This document shows positions 51,852-62,523 of a stretch of 64,000 nt of DNA, one piece after another. The translations under genes were made by a program, and so were the position numbers. The notes under the pieces are model-generated. The model was not told the origin of the DNA, made no database searches, and saw only the letters and a list, made by a program, of their open reading frames with translations. The stretch comes from a bacterium (GTDB lineage: Bacteria; UBA8248). Positions within the stretch are counted from its first letter, which is position 1. Each line of letters begins with the position of its first letter. Location of the stretch: the NCBI GenBank assembly GCA_965199855.1, contig OZ241326.1, positions 768,001 through 832,000 of the forward strand, given 5' to 3'.

Positions 51852-51928
51852 TGGAGCCGACGACCGGACTTGAACCGGTGACCTGCTGATTACGAATCAG
51901 CTGCTCTACCTGTCTGAGCTACGTCGGC
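51852..51928 (-). tRNA. tRNA-Thr(CGT)
   Basis: Cloverleaf, anticodon arm CTGAT-T-CGT-A-ATCAG, GTTCAAGTC T-loop, encoded CCA. Confidence 0.95.
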
Positions 51929-51962
51929 CAGAGGACGCGCCCGCCATTGCCGCGCGAGAGGC

Positions 51963-52053
51963 ATTGAACACGCGCGCGCGGCGCCCGTCAAGCAGCGAGA
52001 AGGCGTGGCGCTTTCGCGTCGGGGTTGACTTACCCGGCGGCGCGGCGTAAAGC
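51963..52053. promoter_or_regulatory. Divergent sigma70 promoters for the two tRNAs
   Basis: Minus strand TTGACG-17-TTCAAT (51991 to 51963); plus strand TTGACT-17-TAAAGC (52025-52053). Confidence 0.6.
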
Positions 52054-52066
52054 TTGTCCTTCCTTC

Positions 52067-52142
<76 letters not shown>

Positions 52143-52259
52143 CGAATCGCCCCGGGCCCCGCTTGGGTTCCGTTTTCTCCATTCGGGGACGCCTCGCCGA
52201 TGCGCGCCGGCCCCGCCGCCCGGAGAAGCAAGGCGCCTTGAAGCGCTCCAAGAGACATC

Positions 52260-53435
52260 GTGATCATGTATGACAATGTCGTAGCCCATAAAATCGCCGA
52301 GCAAGATCCAAGCGTTCCCCTGACGAACTTCTCTGCCGTCCAGCCCGATACGGCCCTGGAAAGCCTGAACCTGAACTGGCGAGAAAGAGACTTGCCTCAA
52401 AGATTGAGAACGAAGCACGTCCATTGCCTTCACCCCTACCTGGGAAAATTCATTCCGCAAATCGTAGAAATTTTTCTGCGCAAATTTCAGCCGCGGCTGG
52501 TCTATGATCCTTTTTGCGGTTCCGGGACGACTCTCGTCGAAGCGAAAACTTTGGGGATTCGCTCGCTTGGAACCGATATTTCCGCCTTCAACGTCCTGCT
52601 TTCGCGCGCCAAGACGAGCGATTACGACATCAGGACGCTCAAGAATGAAATTCAGGACATCTTGTTCAGACTTTCCATATTCAAGGAGCAATTCGCCGGT
52701 GAGGCGCGCAACGAATATCTGGAGGAATGGTTCTCGGAGCAGGCGAGAAGGGAGCTTCTATGCTATCTGGATTTGATCAAAGATTACGAATATCAAGATT
52801 TGCTCAAGATTATCCTTTCCCGCTCCGCGCGCTCGTCGAGACTCACAACCCACTTTGACCTGGACTTTCCCAAGAAGCCGCAAAAAGAGCCCTACGAATG
52901 CTACAAGCACGGGCGAATCTGCCGGCCGGTTCAGGAAGCCTACAAATTCCTGAAGCGATACACGATCGATACCTTGCGAAGGATTGAAGAGTTCCATCAA
53001 CTAAAGCCGGCAGGCGAGGCGGAAGCACTTCACGGAGACGCCCGGGCCATTGAATTGCCGAACGGGATAGACATGGTCTTTACTTCTCCTCCCTACATCG
53101 GCCTCATCGACTACCACGAACAGCACAGATACGCCTACGAACTGCTCGGTCTGGAAAACAACGAAGCGAAGGAGATAGGCTCCGCAAAAAAAGGGGCCTC
53201 TCAAAAGGCGAAGCGGGAATACATCGAAAGCATCAACGAGGTGCTGTTGCATACGCGCTGCCACATGGCCAAGGACGGGATTATGGCCATCGTGGTGAAC
53301 GACAAATACGGCCTTTACGATCCTTCCCAAGTCGGCTTCGAGGCCATCGGGAGAGTCGAACGGCACGTGAACCGCCGCACGGGCAGACGCGGCGACGCCT
53401 TCTACGAAAGCATCTTGATTTGGAAAAAAGCATGA
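52260..53435 (+). CDS. N4-cytosine/N6-adenine DNA methyltransferase
   Basis: HPYLGKFIPQ, YDPFCGSGTT, FTSPPY. Confidence 0.9.
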   Translation: MIMYDNVVAHKIAEQDPSVPLTNFSAVQPDTALESLNLNWRERDLPQRLRTKHVHCLHPYLGKFIPQIVEIFLRKFQPRLVYDPFCGSGTTLVEAKTLGIRSLGTDISAFNVLLSRAKTSDYDIRTLKNEIQDILFRLSIFKEQFAGEARNEYLEEWFSEQARRELLCYLDLIKDYEYQDLLKIILSRSARSSRLTTHFDLDFPKKPQKEPYECYKHGRICRPVQEAYKFLKRYTIDTLRRIEEFHQLKPAGEAEALHGDARAIELPNGIDMVFTSPPYIGLIDYHEQHRYAYELLGLENNEAKEIGSAKKGASQKAKREYIESINEVLLHTRCHMAKDGIMAIVVNDKYGLYDPSQVGFEAIGRVERHVNRRTGRRGDAFYESILIWKKA

Positions 53436-54247
53436 TTGAAAGGGAGACGCGACTTTGCATCAAGGGTTACCTTGAAGGCTTCATCCAAGGCATCATAGAC
53501 GACAAAGCCAGCGCCAGCTTCGATCCCAGAGAGTTGCGGCCATTCAGAAGCGAATCGAAAAAAGCCGATCTGAAGCCCTTCCATGAGTCTCTGCTTCCGG
53601 ACGGATTGCTCAGAATAAGCGAATTCGAAAGGTCGTTTTCCACCAAACTGGGAACGACGTTTGAGGAATGCGCCCGGCTCATCGCCCTCGCCCATCACAA
53701 GCACGCGGAGAGGGCGTATCGCGTTGCGGGTCAAATTTCTCTTGAAGCCGTCAGGTTCATCGAAGAGACGGTCAGCGCGATAGATTCCGGCGGACTGAAG
53801 AGGAGCTACCCAGAACTCATCGAGCAAACGCTCAGGCTTGCGGAGAAGGGGGAGCGCGCGGAAAGGAGCAGCATCGTCGATCTATACATTCTTACGCATG
53901 ACGACGCGAGAATTTTCATCGAGATCAAGAGCCCGAAGCCAAACAAGGGGCAATGCGTGGAAATCATGGGGCGATTGCTTCAGATTCATGGCCTGACTCA
54001 TCGGGAATACCCGAAAATCAAGGCGTATTACGCGACTGCCTACAACCCTTACGGTGTTGAAAAGTCAACATATAAGCACAGCTTCGCCCTGAATTATATG
54101 GACATGGAAAACGAAGTTCTGCTAGGAAGGGATTTTTGGGAGCTGGTCGGCGGAAACGGGACATACGAGGAAATCCTTGAGATTTATCAGGAGGTAGGAC
54201 GGGAAAAGGGACCGGCCATGTTCGAGCAGCTGGCGCTCGGGTATTAG
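53432..54247 (+). CDS. Type II restriction endonuclease, TdeIII-like family
   Basis: FERSFSTKLG, VDLYI...IEIKSPKPNKGQ, AYNPYG, GRDFWE; ATGA overlap with MTase. Confidence 0.8.
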   Translation: MIERETRLCIKGYLEGFIQGIIDDKASASFDPRELRPFRSESKKADLKPFHESLLPDGLLRISEFERSFSTKLGTTFEECARLIALAHHKHAERAYRVAGQISLEAVRFIEETVSAIDSGGLKRSYPELIEQTLRLAEKGERAERSSIVDLYILTHDDARIFIEIKSPKPNKGQCVEIMGRLLQIHGLTHREYPKIKAYYATAYNPYGVEKSTYKHSFALNYMDMENEVLLGRDFWELVGGNGTYEEILEIYQEVGREKGPAMFEQLALGY

Positions 54248-59296: not shown

Positions 59297-59790
59297 GGCC
59301 ATTTTCCCGATCAGGGGCATCCAATCTTCATTAGGGCCGCCCGGAACCCGTAGGGGCGGTTCGGGAACCGCCCGTTGCGGACGATAACGGCGTTGATTCG
59401 GACAACCACAAGGGGTTGTCCCTACGAAATACCCCGCCGTCATTCCGGCGGAAGCCGGAATCCAGAACGGTCGCGTCATTCGAGAAAGACGGGCGGCCGC
59501 CCGATCATTCACCTGACCATCGGCGCAGGGTTTCGTAGGGGGCGCATATATGCGCCCCGAACGGATGAGCGCGCGGGCGCGGAGGCGAAGAATATCCACC
59601 GGATCGGTTGCGCGCGCGTGGCTTCGCAGGGGCGACCCGTCCGCAACCCGTAGGGGCGGTTCGGGAACCGCCCGTTGCGGACGATAACGGCGTTGATTCG
59701 GACAACCACAAGGGGTTGTCCCTACGGATGCGAAACCACCCAACCGTCGCCAGCCTACGCGCGGGGCGCATATATGCGCCCCCTACGAAC
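59297..59790. repeat. REP-like palindrome cluster
   Basis: About 80 bp unit CCGTAGGGGCGGTTCGGGAACCGCCC...GTCCCTACG repeated at 59348 and 59648; GGGGCGCATATATGCGCCCC at about 59539 and 59763; CGTCATTCCGGCGGAAGCCGGAATCCA at about 59438. Confidence 0.85.
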
Positions 59791-59817
59791 CCAAAGACCC
59801 CGCCCCGTGAAACGCTC

Positions 59818-59971
59818 GACCCCCGACGCCTTTCGACGCCGGGGGTCTTCCTCGCCATGCCACGCCCCGCCCTGCCAAGCCTGGCCGAGCCATGCCTTGC
59901 CCTACCTTGCCGCGCCGTGCCCCGCCTGGCCAAACCTAGCCGTGCCCTGCCGGGCCACGCCTCGCCATGCC
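59818..59971 (-). ncRNA. GGY-NN pentamer array 2 (24 units, 59852-59971) plus GGAAG and 13 bp GAAA-tetraloop hairpin; candidate guide RNA
   Basis: Perfect 5 nt register, 22 GGC and 2 GGT constant triplets, variable dinucleotides; hairpin GACCCCCGGCGTC-GAAA-GGCGTCGGGGGTC. Confidence 0.75.
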
Positions 59972-60010
59972 TCGAACTGTCAGTTTCTCACGCTTCGCGT
60001 CGTTTTCAAT

Positions 60011-60128
60011 GAGCGCGGGGGTAATATATTCGGGCCCCCGCTCCCCTTCCTCGCCAAGCCTCGCCTCGCCAAGCCTCGCCGAGCCCAGCCACGCCTTGCC
60101 ATGCCCAGCCGAGCCACGCCCCGCCCCG
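60011..60128 (-). ncRNA. GGY-NN pentamer array 1 (15 units, 60051-60125) plus GGAAG and hairpin; candidate guide RNA
   Basis: Begins 3 nt after the stop of 60129..60728; ends GGCGA-GGAAG then GAGCGGGGG...CCCCCGCGCTC hairpin. Confidence 0.75.
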
Positions 60129-60728
60129 CTAATCCGTCAACGCCTCGATGCTCTCCGTCTCGAAGCGTCCATAGACGCCGGATTTCTCCGGCCGCCAGTC
60201 GCCCAGGCCGATGCGGCGGCCGGCGATGTCCAGCCACGCTTCCAGCTGGCTCTGATCGACGAGCTCGTCATCCGCCTCGACGACGAACGCCACCCCCCAT
60301 TCGTCGAATTTCGCCCGCGTTCGCAGGACGCGGCTGCGCTGGACGACGACGCCCGTCGTGAACTGCGCGGTCTTGGCGAGCGCCTCCGCCGTCGCTCCCA
60401 TGCTCCTGTCGTAGGAGAACTCCTCGACTTTCTCCACGAGCATCCCCTCGCGCACCTGCGGGCCCTGCTTCAGCTTTCGCGCGCCCGTTTCGATGGCCGC
60501 CCTGAGCATGCCTTCCGGGACGGTAGGCCCGCCGTCCGCGTCGAGATAGAGACTGGTGAGGCAGTCGAGCTCCCGGAGCCGGGCTTCGTCGGACTCCGTG
60601 CGGTTGCTCCCCCGCTTTCGCGCGATTTCCGCCTTCTCGACGTTGGCAGGGGATCGCGCGTCGAGTCCAGCCGCGCCGTTGTGCATGATGAGCGGTCTGA
60701 TGCCCCTGATTTTGATTCTGTATCGCAT
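60129..60728 (-). CDS. Stand-alone RAMP/Cas7-like protein (199 aa)
   Basis: ATG after GGGGAGAGGAA; IKIRGIRPLIMHN first strand, GPTVPEGMLRAAI (RAMP P-x-IP-x-x-x-LK-like), C-terminal Gly loop GLGDWRPEKSGVYGRF. Confidence 0.7.
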   Translation of the reverse strand: MRYRIKIRGIRPLIMHNGAAGLDARSPANVEKAEIARKRGSNRTESDEARLRELDCLTSLYLDADGGPTVPEGMLRAAIETGARKLKQGPQVREGMLVEKVEEFSYDRSMGATAEALAKTAQFTTGVVVQRSRVLRTRAKFDEWGVAFVVEADDELVDQSQLEAWLDIAGRRIGLGDWRPEKSGVYGRFETESIEALTD

Positions 60729-61129
60729 TTCCTCTCCCCTGAATGTTCGCCCGTCCGCCGCCGGGACGCCGGCAGAGGATCGGGCCTCAAGTCGGGCCGC
60801 CCCTCGGCGCGTGATGAGCGGCCCAGCATCCCCGGCGTCTCCGCCGTTTCCGACTGCGCCGCGGCTTCCCTGAACGCGGCCATGAATTGATGCGGGTCGC
60901 CGCCGTATTTCTCGATGTGGCGGCGCAAGGTGGTCGCCGCTTGATGGCATACCCCGCAAAGCGCGGTGAGATCGTTCGCCGTGAGCTCCCCCGGCTTCGG
61001 ATACCGCCATGCCCAATGATGCGCTTCCTCGGCGGGCCGTAGTCCGCAGAACTGGCACCTGCCCCCGCTTCGGGCGAAGGCTTCCGCCCGCGCCGCCTCG
61101 TAATTCGGCCCGTAGGTCGATTCCTTCAT
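60470..61129 (-). CDS. HNH-type Zn-finger nuclease (domain in first ~90 aa; low-complexity tail overlaps next gene)
   Basis: RSGGRCQFCG...EAHH...DLTALCGVCH; GGGAGGG RBS; extended -10 TGCTATCTT at 61155-61163. Confidence 0.7.
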   Translation of the reverse strand: MKESTYGPNYEAARAEAFARSGGRCQFCGLRPAEEAHHWAWRYPKPGELTANDLTALCGVCHQAATTLRRHIEKYGGDPHQFMAAFREAAAQSETAETPGMLGRSSRAEGRPDLRPDPLPASRRRTGEHSGERKCDTESKSGASDRSSCTTARLDSTRDPLPTSRRRKSRESGGATARSPTKPGSGSSTASPVSISTRTAGLPSRKACSGRPSKRARES

Positions 61130-61207
61130 GCGCCCTCCCGAATGAGAAAAACCGAAGATAGCATAAATCGCCCGGCGCGGTGATCCGCAGGGGCGGGGGC
61201 TCGCCCC

Positions 61208-61380
61208 GGCCATTTTCCCGATCATCGGCGGAAGGTTCCGTAGGGGCGGTTCGTGAACCGCCCGTTGCGGATGTCCACGGAAAAACGGGGCGTTCACGAA
61301 CGCCCCCTACGAAATCAATCGCCGACCTGCGGGCGGGTCGCATATATGCGTGGGACGCGCCTCTTGGCGCGTCACCTACG
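61208..61380. repeat. REP-like palindrome cluster, right flank
   Basis: GGCCATTTTCCCGATCA identical to 59297-59313, followed by CGTAGGGGCGGTTCGTGAACCGCCCGTTGCGGA...CCCCTACG. Confidence 0.8.
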
Positions 61381-61494
61381 GAAGCAAATATCCCGCCCCG
61401 TGACGGACGCCCCCGCCGCGCGTGGCGTCCCCGGGGCGGGGCTGGTAGAATCGGCGCGGAACCCTTGGATACCCCAACGCGGAAGGACGCGCCC

Positions 61495-62523
61495 ATGAAG
61501 GCCATGATCCTCAAGGAGTTCGGCCGTCCGCTCGCCCTGGAGGAGGCGCCCGAGCCGCGCATCGGCCCCCGCCAGGCATTGGTGGAATCGAAGGCGAACG
61601 GGCTGTGCGCGACGGATTTGAAGATCGTGGACGGCAGCGTCAGAACCGCCCCCACCCCCCTCATGCTCGGCCACGAGAACGCCGGCGTCGTGCTGGAGAC
61701 GGGCGCGGAGGTGGAATCCGTCGCGCCCGGGGATCGCGTGGTCGTCGTGAGCAAGCAGACCTGCGGGCGCTGCCGCATGTGCCGCGCGGGGAGCGAGGAG
61801 ATGTGCCTGAACTCGCCCGGACGCCTGGGGATAGAGCTGGACGGCGGCTTCGGGCAGCTTGTCGCCGCCTCGGAGCGCAGCCTCGTCAAAATCGGCGAGA
61901 ACGTCTCCCTGGAGGCGGCCTGCCTCATCGGCGGCACGCTCGGCTCCCCGCTCCACGCCATCCGCATGGCGCGGCCCGAGCTCGGCGAGTGCGCGGTCGT
62001 GTTCGGGGCGGGCGGCCTGGGGCTGCACGCCCTGCAGATCCTCCGGCACCTGGGGGCGAACGTGATCGCCGTGGACGTGAAGGAGGAGAAGCTGGCGAAG
62101 GCGCGCGAACTCGGCGCGTTCGAGGCGGTCAACGCCGCGCGAACCGACCCGGTGAAGGCGGTGATGGACATCACGGACGGCTTCGGGGCGGACGTCGCCC
62201 TCGAAATCGTGGGAGGCGCCGCCGTCCCGCCCGTCATCCAGCAGTGCCTGGATCTGCTGCGCCCCGGCGGGCGGCTCGTCATCCTGGGCTACGCCTTCGG
62301 CCAGAAAGTGGAGATCGACCCCGCGCAGCTGGTCTATAAATGGATTCAGGTGGTCGCCTCCCACAACCACACCGTCCGCGACGTGGCCGACGCGGCGAGC
62401 CTCGTGAACGACGGACGGGTGCGCGCCGTCATCACCGAGGAGGCGCCGATGCCGGAGGCGAACGCGGCGCTCGCCGCCCTTCGCGCGGGGGATCCCGTGG
62501 GCCGCATCGTCCTGACGTGGTAG
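61495..62523 (+). CDS. Zinc-binding alcohol dehydrogenase family protein
   Basis: CATD, LGHENAG, CGRCRMC...C, GAGGLG. Confidence 0.92.
   Translation: MKAMILKEFGRPLALEEAPEPRIGPRQALVESKANGLCATDLKIVDGSVRTAPTPLMLGHENAGVVLETGAEVESVAPGDRVVVVSKQTCGRCRMCRAGSEEMCLNSPGRLGIELDGGFGQLVAASERSLVKIGENVSLEAACLIGGTLGSPLHAIRMARPELGECAVVFGAGGLGLHALQILRHLGANVIAVDVKEEKLAKARELGAFEAVNAARTDPVKAVMDITDGFGADVALEIVGGAAVPPVIQQCLDLLRPGGRLVILGYAFGQKVEIDPAQLVYKWIQVVASHNHTVRDVADAASLVNDGRVRAVITEEAPMPEANAALAALRAGDPVGRIVLTW

Follow-up and report, generated by a model that had tools for sequence, protein, structure and literature searches.

VIPR is a CRISPR-like RNA-guided DNA-binding system that was first described in 2026 (bioRxiv 10.64898/2026.04.26.720920); this and the other VIPR preprints are cited here from the portions of them that were available. 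According to that preprint, Vipr is an ancestral RAMP protein that polymerises on guide RNAs (vrRNAs) of alternating GGY and NN, the NN dinucleotides of which read double-stranded DNA with one base skipped per unit. The vrRNA genes are tandem GGY/NN pentamers (9-16 and up to ~30 units) with a conserved, structured 3' tail after them, and VIPR loci are minimal, consisting of vipr and one vap gene (bioRxiv 10.64898/2026.04.26.720920). Seven types have been defined, with predicted nucleases or helicases in types III-V; for types III and V the proposal is that viral targets are destroyed, type III is described as enriched in defence islands, and an HNH-domain Vap is named in the supplementary legend of figure S21 (bioRxiv 10.64898/2026.04.26.720920). 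That this HNH Vap belongs to type III is a reading of the legend and is not explicit in the preprint. The structural preprint calls the sensing of the complex by accessory nucleases unclear and explicitly describes the nuclease partners of VIPR as uncharacterised (bioRxiv 10.64898/2026.04.26.720927); the literature on the system also includes bioRxiv 10.64898/2026.10.21.760802. The solved member of the family is the type II system of Escherichia phage SUSP1 (Protein Data Bank (PDB) 36pp), in which vap1 lies downstream, is predicted to bind DNA, and silencing occurs without cutting, as far as the available text describes it. Another RAMP-based RNA-guided complex, the type I-E Cas5-HNH 'HNH Cascade' (PDB 8yb6, 8zlu), has its own HNH nuclease instead of Cas3. 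Here we analysed a 64,000-nucleotide stretch of a bacterial chromosome (the window; GTDB lineage Bacteria; UBA8248, contig OZ241326.1, positions 768,001 to 832,000), in which an HNH nuclease gene overlaps a gene of the Vipr family.

Judged from its sequence, the locus is a complete chromosomal VIPR system made up of vipr, one accessory gene and two guide tracts, because the neighbour of the HNH gene is Vipr and two hairpin-tailed guide tracts follow it. The HNH protein is probably the accessory (Vap-type) nuclease of this system, which would be brought to the bound target to cut it. HNH is a conserved partner of vipr and the two are inherited as a unit, and the C-terminal tail of HNH is dual-coded with vipr and kept by selection. 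The features on which the analysis rests are listed below.

60470..61129, minus strand: HNH nuclease gene, vap-like, 219 aa (ATG at 61129, TGA stop at 60470-60472; from family matches and homologue starts)
60842..61108, minus strand: folded HNH (His-Me finger) domain, residues 8-96, with C25, C28, H37, H38, C58, C61 and H62 (AlphaFold2)
60473..60841, minus strand: disordered basic Ser/Thr/Arg-rich tail of HNH, residues 97-219 (predicted local distance difference test score, pLDDT, 51-59; open frame kept in relatives)
61133..61139, minus strand: Shine-Dalgarno-like GGGAGGG, 3 nt upstream of the HNH ATG (read from the letters)
60129..60728, minus strand: vipr gene, 199 aa, single-RRM RAMP, Cas7-like (phrog_4652, PDB 36pp_D, AlphaFold2 model)
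60470..60728, minus strand: dual-coding overlap of 259 nt, in which vipr codons 1-86 also encode the HNH tail in the +1 frame (open reading frame coordinates, frame and codon tests)
60754..60821, minus strand: extra copy of the vipr 5' segment, repeating 60628-60695 (126-nt spacing, 74% identity)
60011..60128, minus strand: vrRNA 1, ~16 GGC/NN units, GAGGAAGGGG junction and 7-bp hairpin tail, beginning 1 nt past the vipr stop
59805..59978, minus strand: vrRNA 2, ~24-25 GGY/NN units and a strong 13-bp hairpin tail, ~40 nt beyond vrRNA 1

The open reading frame (ORF) that holds the HNH gene spans 60470..61297 on the minus strand. Within it, the ATG at 61129 is the likely start because the N-terminus that it gives lines up with the starts of 55 homologues. 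A first-pass annotation of this DNA had noted an HNH-type gene with a CxxC...HH...LCxxCH pattern, and the motifs counted from this ATG (C25-x2-C28, H37-H38 and L57-C58-x2-C61-H62), together with HNH family and profile matches, confirm it. The ribosome-binding site that had been ascribed to the gene was also found, as the GGGAGGG before the ATG. The extended -10 promoter element claimed alongside it amounts to a string match: the string TGCTATCTT is present at 61163-61155 on the minus strand, but a sigma-70 consensus scan of 59700-61500 found no minus-strand promoter and returned a single site, on the plus strand.

Eleven PHROG families match the HNH protein of the window, ten of them annotated as HNH endonuclease (E 2.6e-6 to 0.09) and the eleventh as terminase small subunit. 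A profile built from 56 homologues matched solved HNH domains at E 4e-5 to 5e-3, with ZRANB3 (E 4.1e-5), the type I-E Cas5-HNH Cascade (E 1.5e-4) and IscB as the best relatives. The domain is confidently modelled (pLDDT 90-98 over residues 11-90), and Cas5-HNH Cascade again leads the fold matches, at a weak E of 1.4e-3 and 27-31% identity; no fold match reaches E<=0.001. T4 endonuclease VII is likewise one of the nearest solved relatives by profile or fold. The comparison with HNH-bearing type I Cascade variants, which the first-pass annotation had drawn, was therefore apt, since this complex is among the best profile matches and is the top fold match.

Relatives of the locus were sampled at one genome per species, giving 110 relatives, and the counts below rest on the best 80 of these 110 loci; the window itself is added where 81 entries are stated. 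The HNH alignment comprises 56 sequences and leaves aside L035 and L037, the motifs of which are degenerate, and L033 and L041, which have short tails. Residues C25, C28, G29, H37, H38, C58, C61, H62 and R69 are invariant in all 56 aligned sequences, and each has the two CxxC zinc knuckles around the catalytic His and the metal-binding His after the second CxxC. The catalytic core of HNH is thus intact and the protein is a predicted nuclease; the catalytic degeneracy that had been named as a possible flaw of the nuclease idea was not seen in the aligned copies.

The gene into which HNH runs, vipr, starts at ATG 60728 behind its own purine-rich GGGGAGAGGA ribosome-binding site, and HNH and vipr are the only two genes between a short-chain dehydrogenase/reductase (SDR) gene and a zinc alcohol dehydrogenase gene. 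Along its full length, the vipr product matches phrog_4652 (function unknown; E 3.3e-36). No Pfam, NCBIfam or PADLOC family matches the Vipr protein of the window, and PADLOC and NCBIfam equally gave nothing useful for the HNH protein. A Vipr family profile, built from 80 diverse members and 196 positions long, has a single match among solved chains, namely 36pp_D, 'SUSP1 Vipr protein' (E 2.8e-51, positions 1-193 of 196). The AlphaFold2 model of Vipr has a pLDDT of 97.7 and 45 PDB fold matches at E<=0.001; the matches listed are Csm3 and Cas7-family subunits from type III and VII effector complexes. The neighbour had been called RAMP-like in the first-pass annotation, which the profile match to Vipr and the model matches to Cas7 and Csm3 bear out. 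The family is large: one collection contains 1155 of its proteins at E<=1e-3 and another has 3019 cluster representatives. A search of IMG/VR for close relatives returned only two distant partial matches. Two phage homologues, both annotated as hypothetical proteins, were observed in settings of their own: in Escherichia phage wV8 the vipr homologue and the next gene are bracketed by annotated direct repeats (DR_4), and in Mycobacterium phage LittleE the vipr homologue and one more gene stand reversed between tail genes.

The two guide tracts are rare features of this genome. Across its 3.04 Mb, five GGC-phased pentamer tracts were found, two of which follow vipr on its strand, and ten control triplets gave no phased pentamer tract in the same 3.04 Mb. 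The hairpin tail of vrRNA 2 has a z score of -4.09, and 0 of 200 shuffles fold as well. Among 81 entries, 37 have a same-strand tract with its start at -20 to +400 nt relative to the vipr stop. An Rfam scan of 15.6 kb, covering the cassette and three solo tracts elsewhere in the genome, gave one match at chance level (rdlD, E 0.52). CRISPR, Rfam or other known RNAs were considered as the identity of the tracts and rejected, as Rfam gave that chance-level match alone.

The three solo tracts (13-16 GGC/NN units each) are located at 672389-672463 (minus strand), 1022850-1022914 (plus strand) and 1193134-1193213 (plus strand). They are far from any vipr, in a bacterial chromosome with a single vipr, and have in common a ~150-nt leader and a GAGGAAGGGG-plus-hairpin tail as in vrRNA 1. 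Solo vrRNAs have been published for phages and satellites (bioRxiv 10.64898/2026.10.15.759431, available portion).

To score the presence of HNH, each locus was searched by tblastn with the HNH protein of the window. Matches were obtained in 62 of the 80 loci; two of these (L001 and L005) match in the tail only, leaving 60 loci with the HNH domain. In all 60, HNH lies directly upstream of vipr and in a constant relative frame. The co-occurrence of HNH with the RAMP-like family, a check put forward in the first-pass annotation, is therefore borne out: 60 of 80 loci have it, with position and frame unchanged. These loci come from Chloroflexota (Dehalococcoidia, Caldilineaceae), Acidobacteriota (Vicinamibacterales) and Alpha- and Gammaproteobacteria (Pseudomonadota), and several genomes carry more than one copy. 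Pairwise identities of the HNH domain correlate with those of the Vipr C-terminal part (Mantel r 0.53, a value reached in 0 of 999 permutations). The HNH label requires 5 changes on a maximum-likelihood Vipr tree (4-5 across bootstraps, at least 3 of them forced by well-supported branches), compared with ~17 for shuffled labels. The HNH-bearing loci are scattered through this tree, which is unrooted and leaves the direction of change unproven. A reverse search starting from HNH, made as a single-sequence scan only, returned six weak, unrelated-looking loci.

Several loci that lack HNH were observed to have contents of their own. In L002 nothing is left of HNH but the region of the second zinc knuckle and a tail-like frame, L001 and L005 retain only tail remnants, and a DDE transposase gene lies upstream in L005. 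In 11 of the 19 HNH-less loci, falling into two clades, vipr adjoins one of two conserved families of large ORFs (about 770-990 aa and about 800-1100 aa). One clade comprises L012, L014, L015, L018, L019 and L054 (Binatia and one Thermodesulfobacteriota), the other L048, L056, L068, L073 and L077 (Acidimicrobiia). The large ORFs matched no Pfam family except for a marginal galactose-binding-domain match in L018 (28 bits, cut-off 27), and had no informative sequence match in the PDB. They may be further accessory proteins. L042, in which the start of HNH was not located, bears HNH and is left out of the 19 HNH-less loci.

The first-pass annotation had described the HNH frame as running about 260 nt into the next gene, and the overlap measures 259 nt. 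In relatives, the folded HNH domain ends where vipr begins and another ~80 residues are encoded, in the +1 frame, wholly within vipr. The 59 related HNH ORFs encode proteins of 95-222 aa, most of them 165-190 aa. The window HNH is lengthened by 42 aa through the direct repeat listed above, an extra stretch not seen in the 59 related ORFs. Of the 60 HNH-bearing entries (59 loci and the window), 56 keep the +1 frame open over 214 nt or more, including loci at 53-58% G+C, and the exceptions are L033 (16 nt), L041 (97 nt), L028 (163 nt) and L072 (184 nt). Synonymous shuffles of the same genes have a median open length of 43 nt. The frame closes within 67 nt in 15 of the 19 HNH-less loci; it stays open in L002 (226 nt), L005 (259 nt), L015 (301 nt) and L040 (214 nt), and L002 and L005 keep remnants of HNH or its tail. 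The HNH-frame stops recur at a few positions (+235, +256 and +259).

Silent sites tell the same overlap apart from the rest of vipr. Codon identity was scored only where two Vipr proteins share a residue: across 54 HNH-bearing loci it is 0.588 in codons 2-78 versus 0.457 in codons 90-199, and across 14 HNH-less loci 0.404 versus 0.434. A sliding profile of codon identity falls near codon 80, which is the end of the HNH frame. After removal of near-duplicates (41 HNH-bearing and 7 HNH-less loci), the amino-acid-matched test gave higher codon identity in the overlap for 15 of 18 residues in HNH-bearing loci, compared with 5 of 11 in HNH-less loci. In the overlap of HNH-bearing loci, codons that end in G are scarcer (G3 0.23 versus 0.38). 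These frame and codon tests show that the HNH tail is dual-coded with vipr and kept by selection. It had been suggested from the letters of the window that the long, low-complexity overlap might instead reflect a lost stop codon; this was rejected, as the frame is kept open and silent sites are conserved in HNH-bearing loci. A -1 frameshift fusing HNH to Vipr was likewise rejected, since at no aligned position is a canonical X XXY YYZ heptamer of the HNH frame found in more than 1 of the 60 entries.

Compared with the described systems, the locus is nearest to VIPR systems with a predicted nuclease Vap, most likely type III. Like nuclease-Vap VIPR, as far as the available preprint text describes it, the window has vipr, one accessory gene and GGY/NN guides with structured 3' tails, its accessory is an HNH protein, its location is cellular and no self-targeting was found. 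It is unlike nuclease-Vap VIPR in that its immediate neighbours are metabolic genes and not a defence island, and in having the ~80-codon dual-coded tail, which was not found in that text. With the type II system of phage SUSP1 it shares the Vipr family, pentamer-coded guides and a 3' tail, the window Vipr being 31% identical to the Felixounavirus copies; unlike SUSP1, its partner is an upstream, overlapping HNH nuclease gene and its home is a bacterial chromosome. HNH Cascade is a multi-subunit complex with HNH fused into Cas5 and contiguous crRNA pairing, whereas in the window HNH is a separate 219-aa protein and the filament next to it consists of one protein and uses a gapped code, and the scores that link the two are weak, as is usual for small HNH domains. 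The overlap resembles the overprinted gene pairs of phages and viruses, in which an older structured gene encodes, in a second reading frame, a disordered and compositionally biased extension, and has its silent sites suppressed. Unlike viral overprinting, it concerns the C-terminal tail of an upstream partner, in an RNA-guided system and in chromosomes of several phyla. An overprinted HNH tail was not found in the available portions of the discovery and competition VIPR preprints or in a library search, and the conserved dual-coded nuclease tail is thus a feature apparently new to print, the rest of the locus type being already known.

The mechanism that we consider is assumed from published type II VIPR. 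Vipr protomers would assemble into a filament along the GGC/NN guide RNAs, the genes of which lie just downstream, and the filament would find double-stranded DNA through the variable NN dinucleotides. The HNH protein, a ~90-aa His-Me finger with a ~80-aa basic disordered tail (122 aa here), would be recruited to the bound target and cut the bound DNA, so that recognition would destroy the DNA instead of silencing it. The tail, written in the +1 frame of the first 78-86 vipr codons, may hold the nuclease to the filament, to its RNA or to unwound DNA, and the overlap may tie the two genes together in inheritance and expression. Cutting of filament-bound DNA, recruitment via the tail and a role in defence against foreign DNA are what we infer. 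The idea that HNH makes a guided nuclease out of a filament that only binds, which was the first-pass annotation's own inference, is what the discovery preprint, in its available portion, proposes for the nuclease-bearing types; it has thus essentially already been proposed in the field, and the locus adds to the known VIPR nuclease loci.

A more specific proposal is offered tentatively. The tail may have been born by overprinting of the vipr 5' end and kept by selection across at least three phyla. It would be the adaptor by which a free-standing nuclease docks on the filament or the unwound DNA, and the overlap would lock inheritance and set the translation ratio. If true, this would be a previously undescribed way to arm an RNA-guided DNA binder. 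It would also make the system a plausible intermediate between VIPR silencing and CRISPR-type interference, because the closest solved HNH is that of Cas5-HNH Cascade.

Three other explanations were weighed against a guided accessory nuclease. The overlap could be functionless, with the first ~95 HNH residues sufficing and the open frame arising incidentally from G+C-rich DNA and from constraints that act on the mRNA and protein of vipr. The tail is predicted to be disordered, its conservation is largely forced by the conserved Vipr N-terminus, and four HNH-bearing loci do with shorter tails (L033, L041, L028 and L072). Single-locus shuffle P values, which range from 0.007 to 1.0 and are mostly 0.05-0.7, are individually not significant. 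We nevertheless hold this explanation to be unlikely, since the frame is open in nearly all HNH-bearing entries, even those of lower G+C content, compared with 4 of 19 HNH-less loci, since silent-site conservation is raised only in HNH-bearing loci and only to about codon 80, and since the stops fall at few recurring positions. It is rather improbable that HNH is a selfish, free-standing homing endonuclease that rides with vipr and has no part in guide-directed function. Its best family matches are indeed the phage HNH endonuclease PHROGs, and presence in 60 of 80 loci with about five label changes on the Vipr tree is a pattern that homing genes also show. Such an element, however, would not be expected at a fixed position and frame with ~80 overlapped codons under silent-site constraint, with catalytic residues invariant across three phyla and with divergence that follows that of Vipr. 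The HNH-less clades moreover have other conserved large partner genes rather than an empty site, and HNH-bearing Vaps are components of the system in the published types, as far as these are described in the available text.

Least probable of all, and very unlikely in our judgement, is that HNH processes the vap-vipr-vrRNA transcript into guides, or helps to make new guides, and cuts no target. The tight spacing of vrRNA 1 behind vipr suggests that guides are probably excised from an operon transcript, no processing enzyme is evident in the two-gene locus, and the basic tail could bind RNA. HNH domains are, however, overwhelmingly DNA nucleases, and the nearest solved relatives (ZRANB3, Cas5-HNH Cascade, IscB and T4 endonuclease VII) are DNA-cutting. 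HNH-less loci (L048, L056, L068 and L077) also keep their downstream tracts, and in type II VIPR mature guides are made without any HNH (bioRxiv 10.64898/2026.04.26.720920, available portion).

Several observations weigh against a guided accessory nuclease itself. The usual Asn of the H-N-H motif is replaced by D53 in the window and by Asp or His in relatives; variants at this middle position are known among active HNH enzymes. Pfam HNH (PF01844) scores the protein below its threshold (E 0.014, 16 bits against a cut-off of 21.4 bits), and despite this the HNH assignment appears to exceed chance. HNH has decayed or been displaced in the closest Vipr relatives of the window (L001, L002, L005 and L040, Paracoccaceae) and is therefore dispensable in some hosts. 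The individually non-significant shuffles count on the same side, and the loci are mutually related, so that the pooled overlap counts overstate independence. The immediate neighbours of the locus are metabolic and not a defence island. Exact 12-unit target patterns, three in IMG/VR and one in a metagenome collection, gave 0 matches, a search stricter than the published rule, as the discovery preprint accepted targets at >=80% match (bioRxiv 10.64898/2026.04.26.720920, available portion). In the available portions of the VIPR preprints, no cleavage by an accessory protein is reported. With these points taken into account, we still regard a Vap-type nuclease of a chromosomal VIPR as the probable identity of the window HNH.

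Self-targets were also searched. With 1-nt-skip matching, the five guides of the genome matched their own genome at best in 23 of 36 and 30 of 50 informative positions, no better than shuffled guides; a 3-nt-skip control recovered each guide's own gene.

The HNH-vipr cassette is a recent insertion, because vipr was found in only 1 of 23 genomes of the genus; the genome itself has a single copy. The flanking SDR and alcohol dehydrogenase genes adjoin in same-genus genomes, with a gap of ~70-940 bp compared with ~2.2 kb here. In the closest same-genus genome (L091), the flanks are 89-90% identical and the gap is 526 bp (about 975-1501 of that locus). A vrRNA 2 homologue lies in this gap; its tail hairpin is the same but its NN dinucleotides differ, and neither vipr nor HNH was found anywhere in the L091 genome. 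Either the guide was left over when the cassette was lost, or it predates the gain of the cassette.

Families of REP-like palindromic repeats were observed on both sides of the cassette, at 59337-59800 and 61170-61440 of the window, and the same palindromes matched at many other sites in its own genome and in relatives. The nearest defence genes, a methylase and a TdeIII-type restriction enzyme, are ~6 kb away. They lie in a patch of low G+C content at 51852-54247 (~0.49-0.56, compared with ~0.70 around it), which carries tRNA-Thr, tRNA-Lys, this N6/N4 DNA methylase and this TdeIII-type restriction endonuclease, and looks like a small horizontally acquired restriction-modification island.

In a literature that is months old, a silencing type of VIPR is the only one studied so far, as far as the available portions show. 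The clade described here is a compact test bed, with two genes and two guides, in which to ask if DNA cutting is directed by a VIPR filament and by what means. It offers natural variants with and without HNH, and its tail can be removed with the Vipr protein left untouched. It also shows VIPR systems moving between distant phyla, and being gained or lost at one intergenic site with solo guides left behind.

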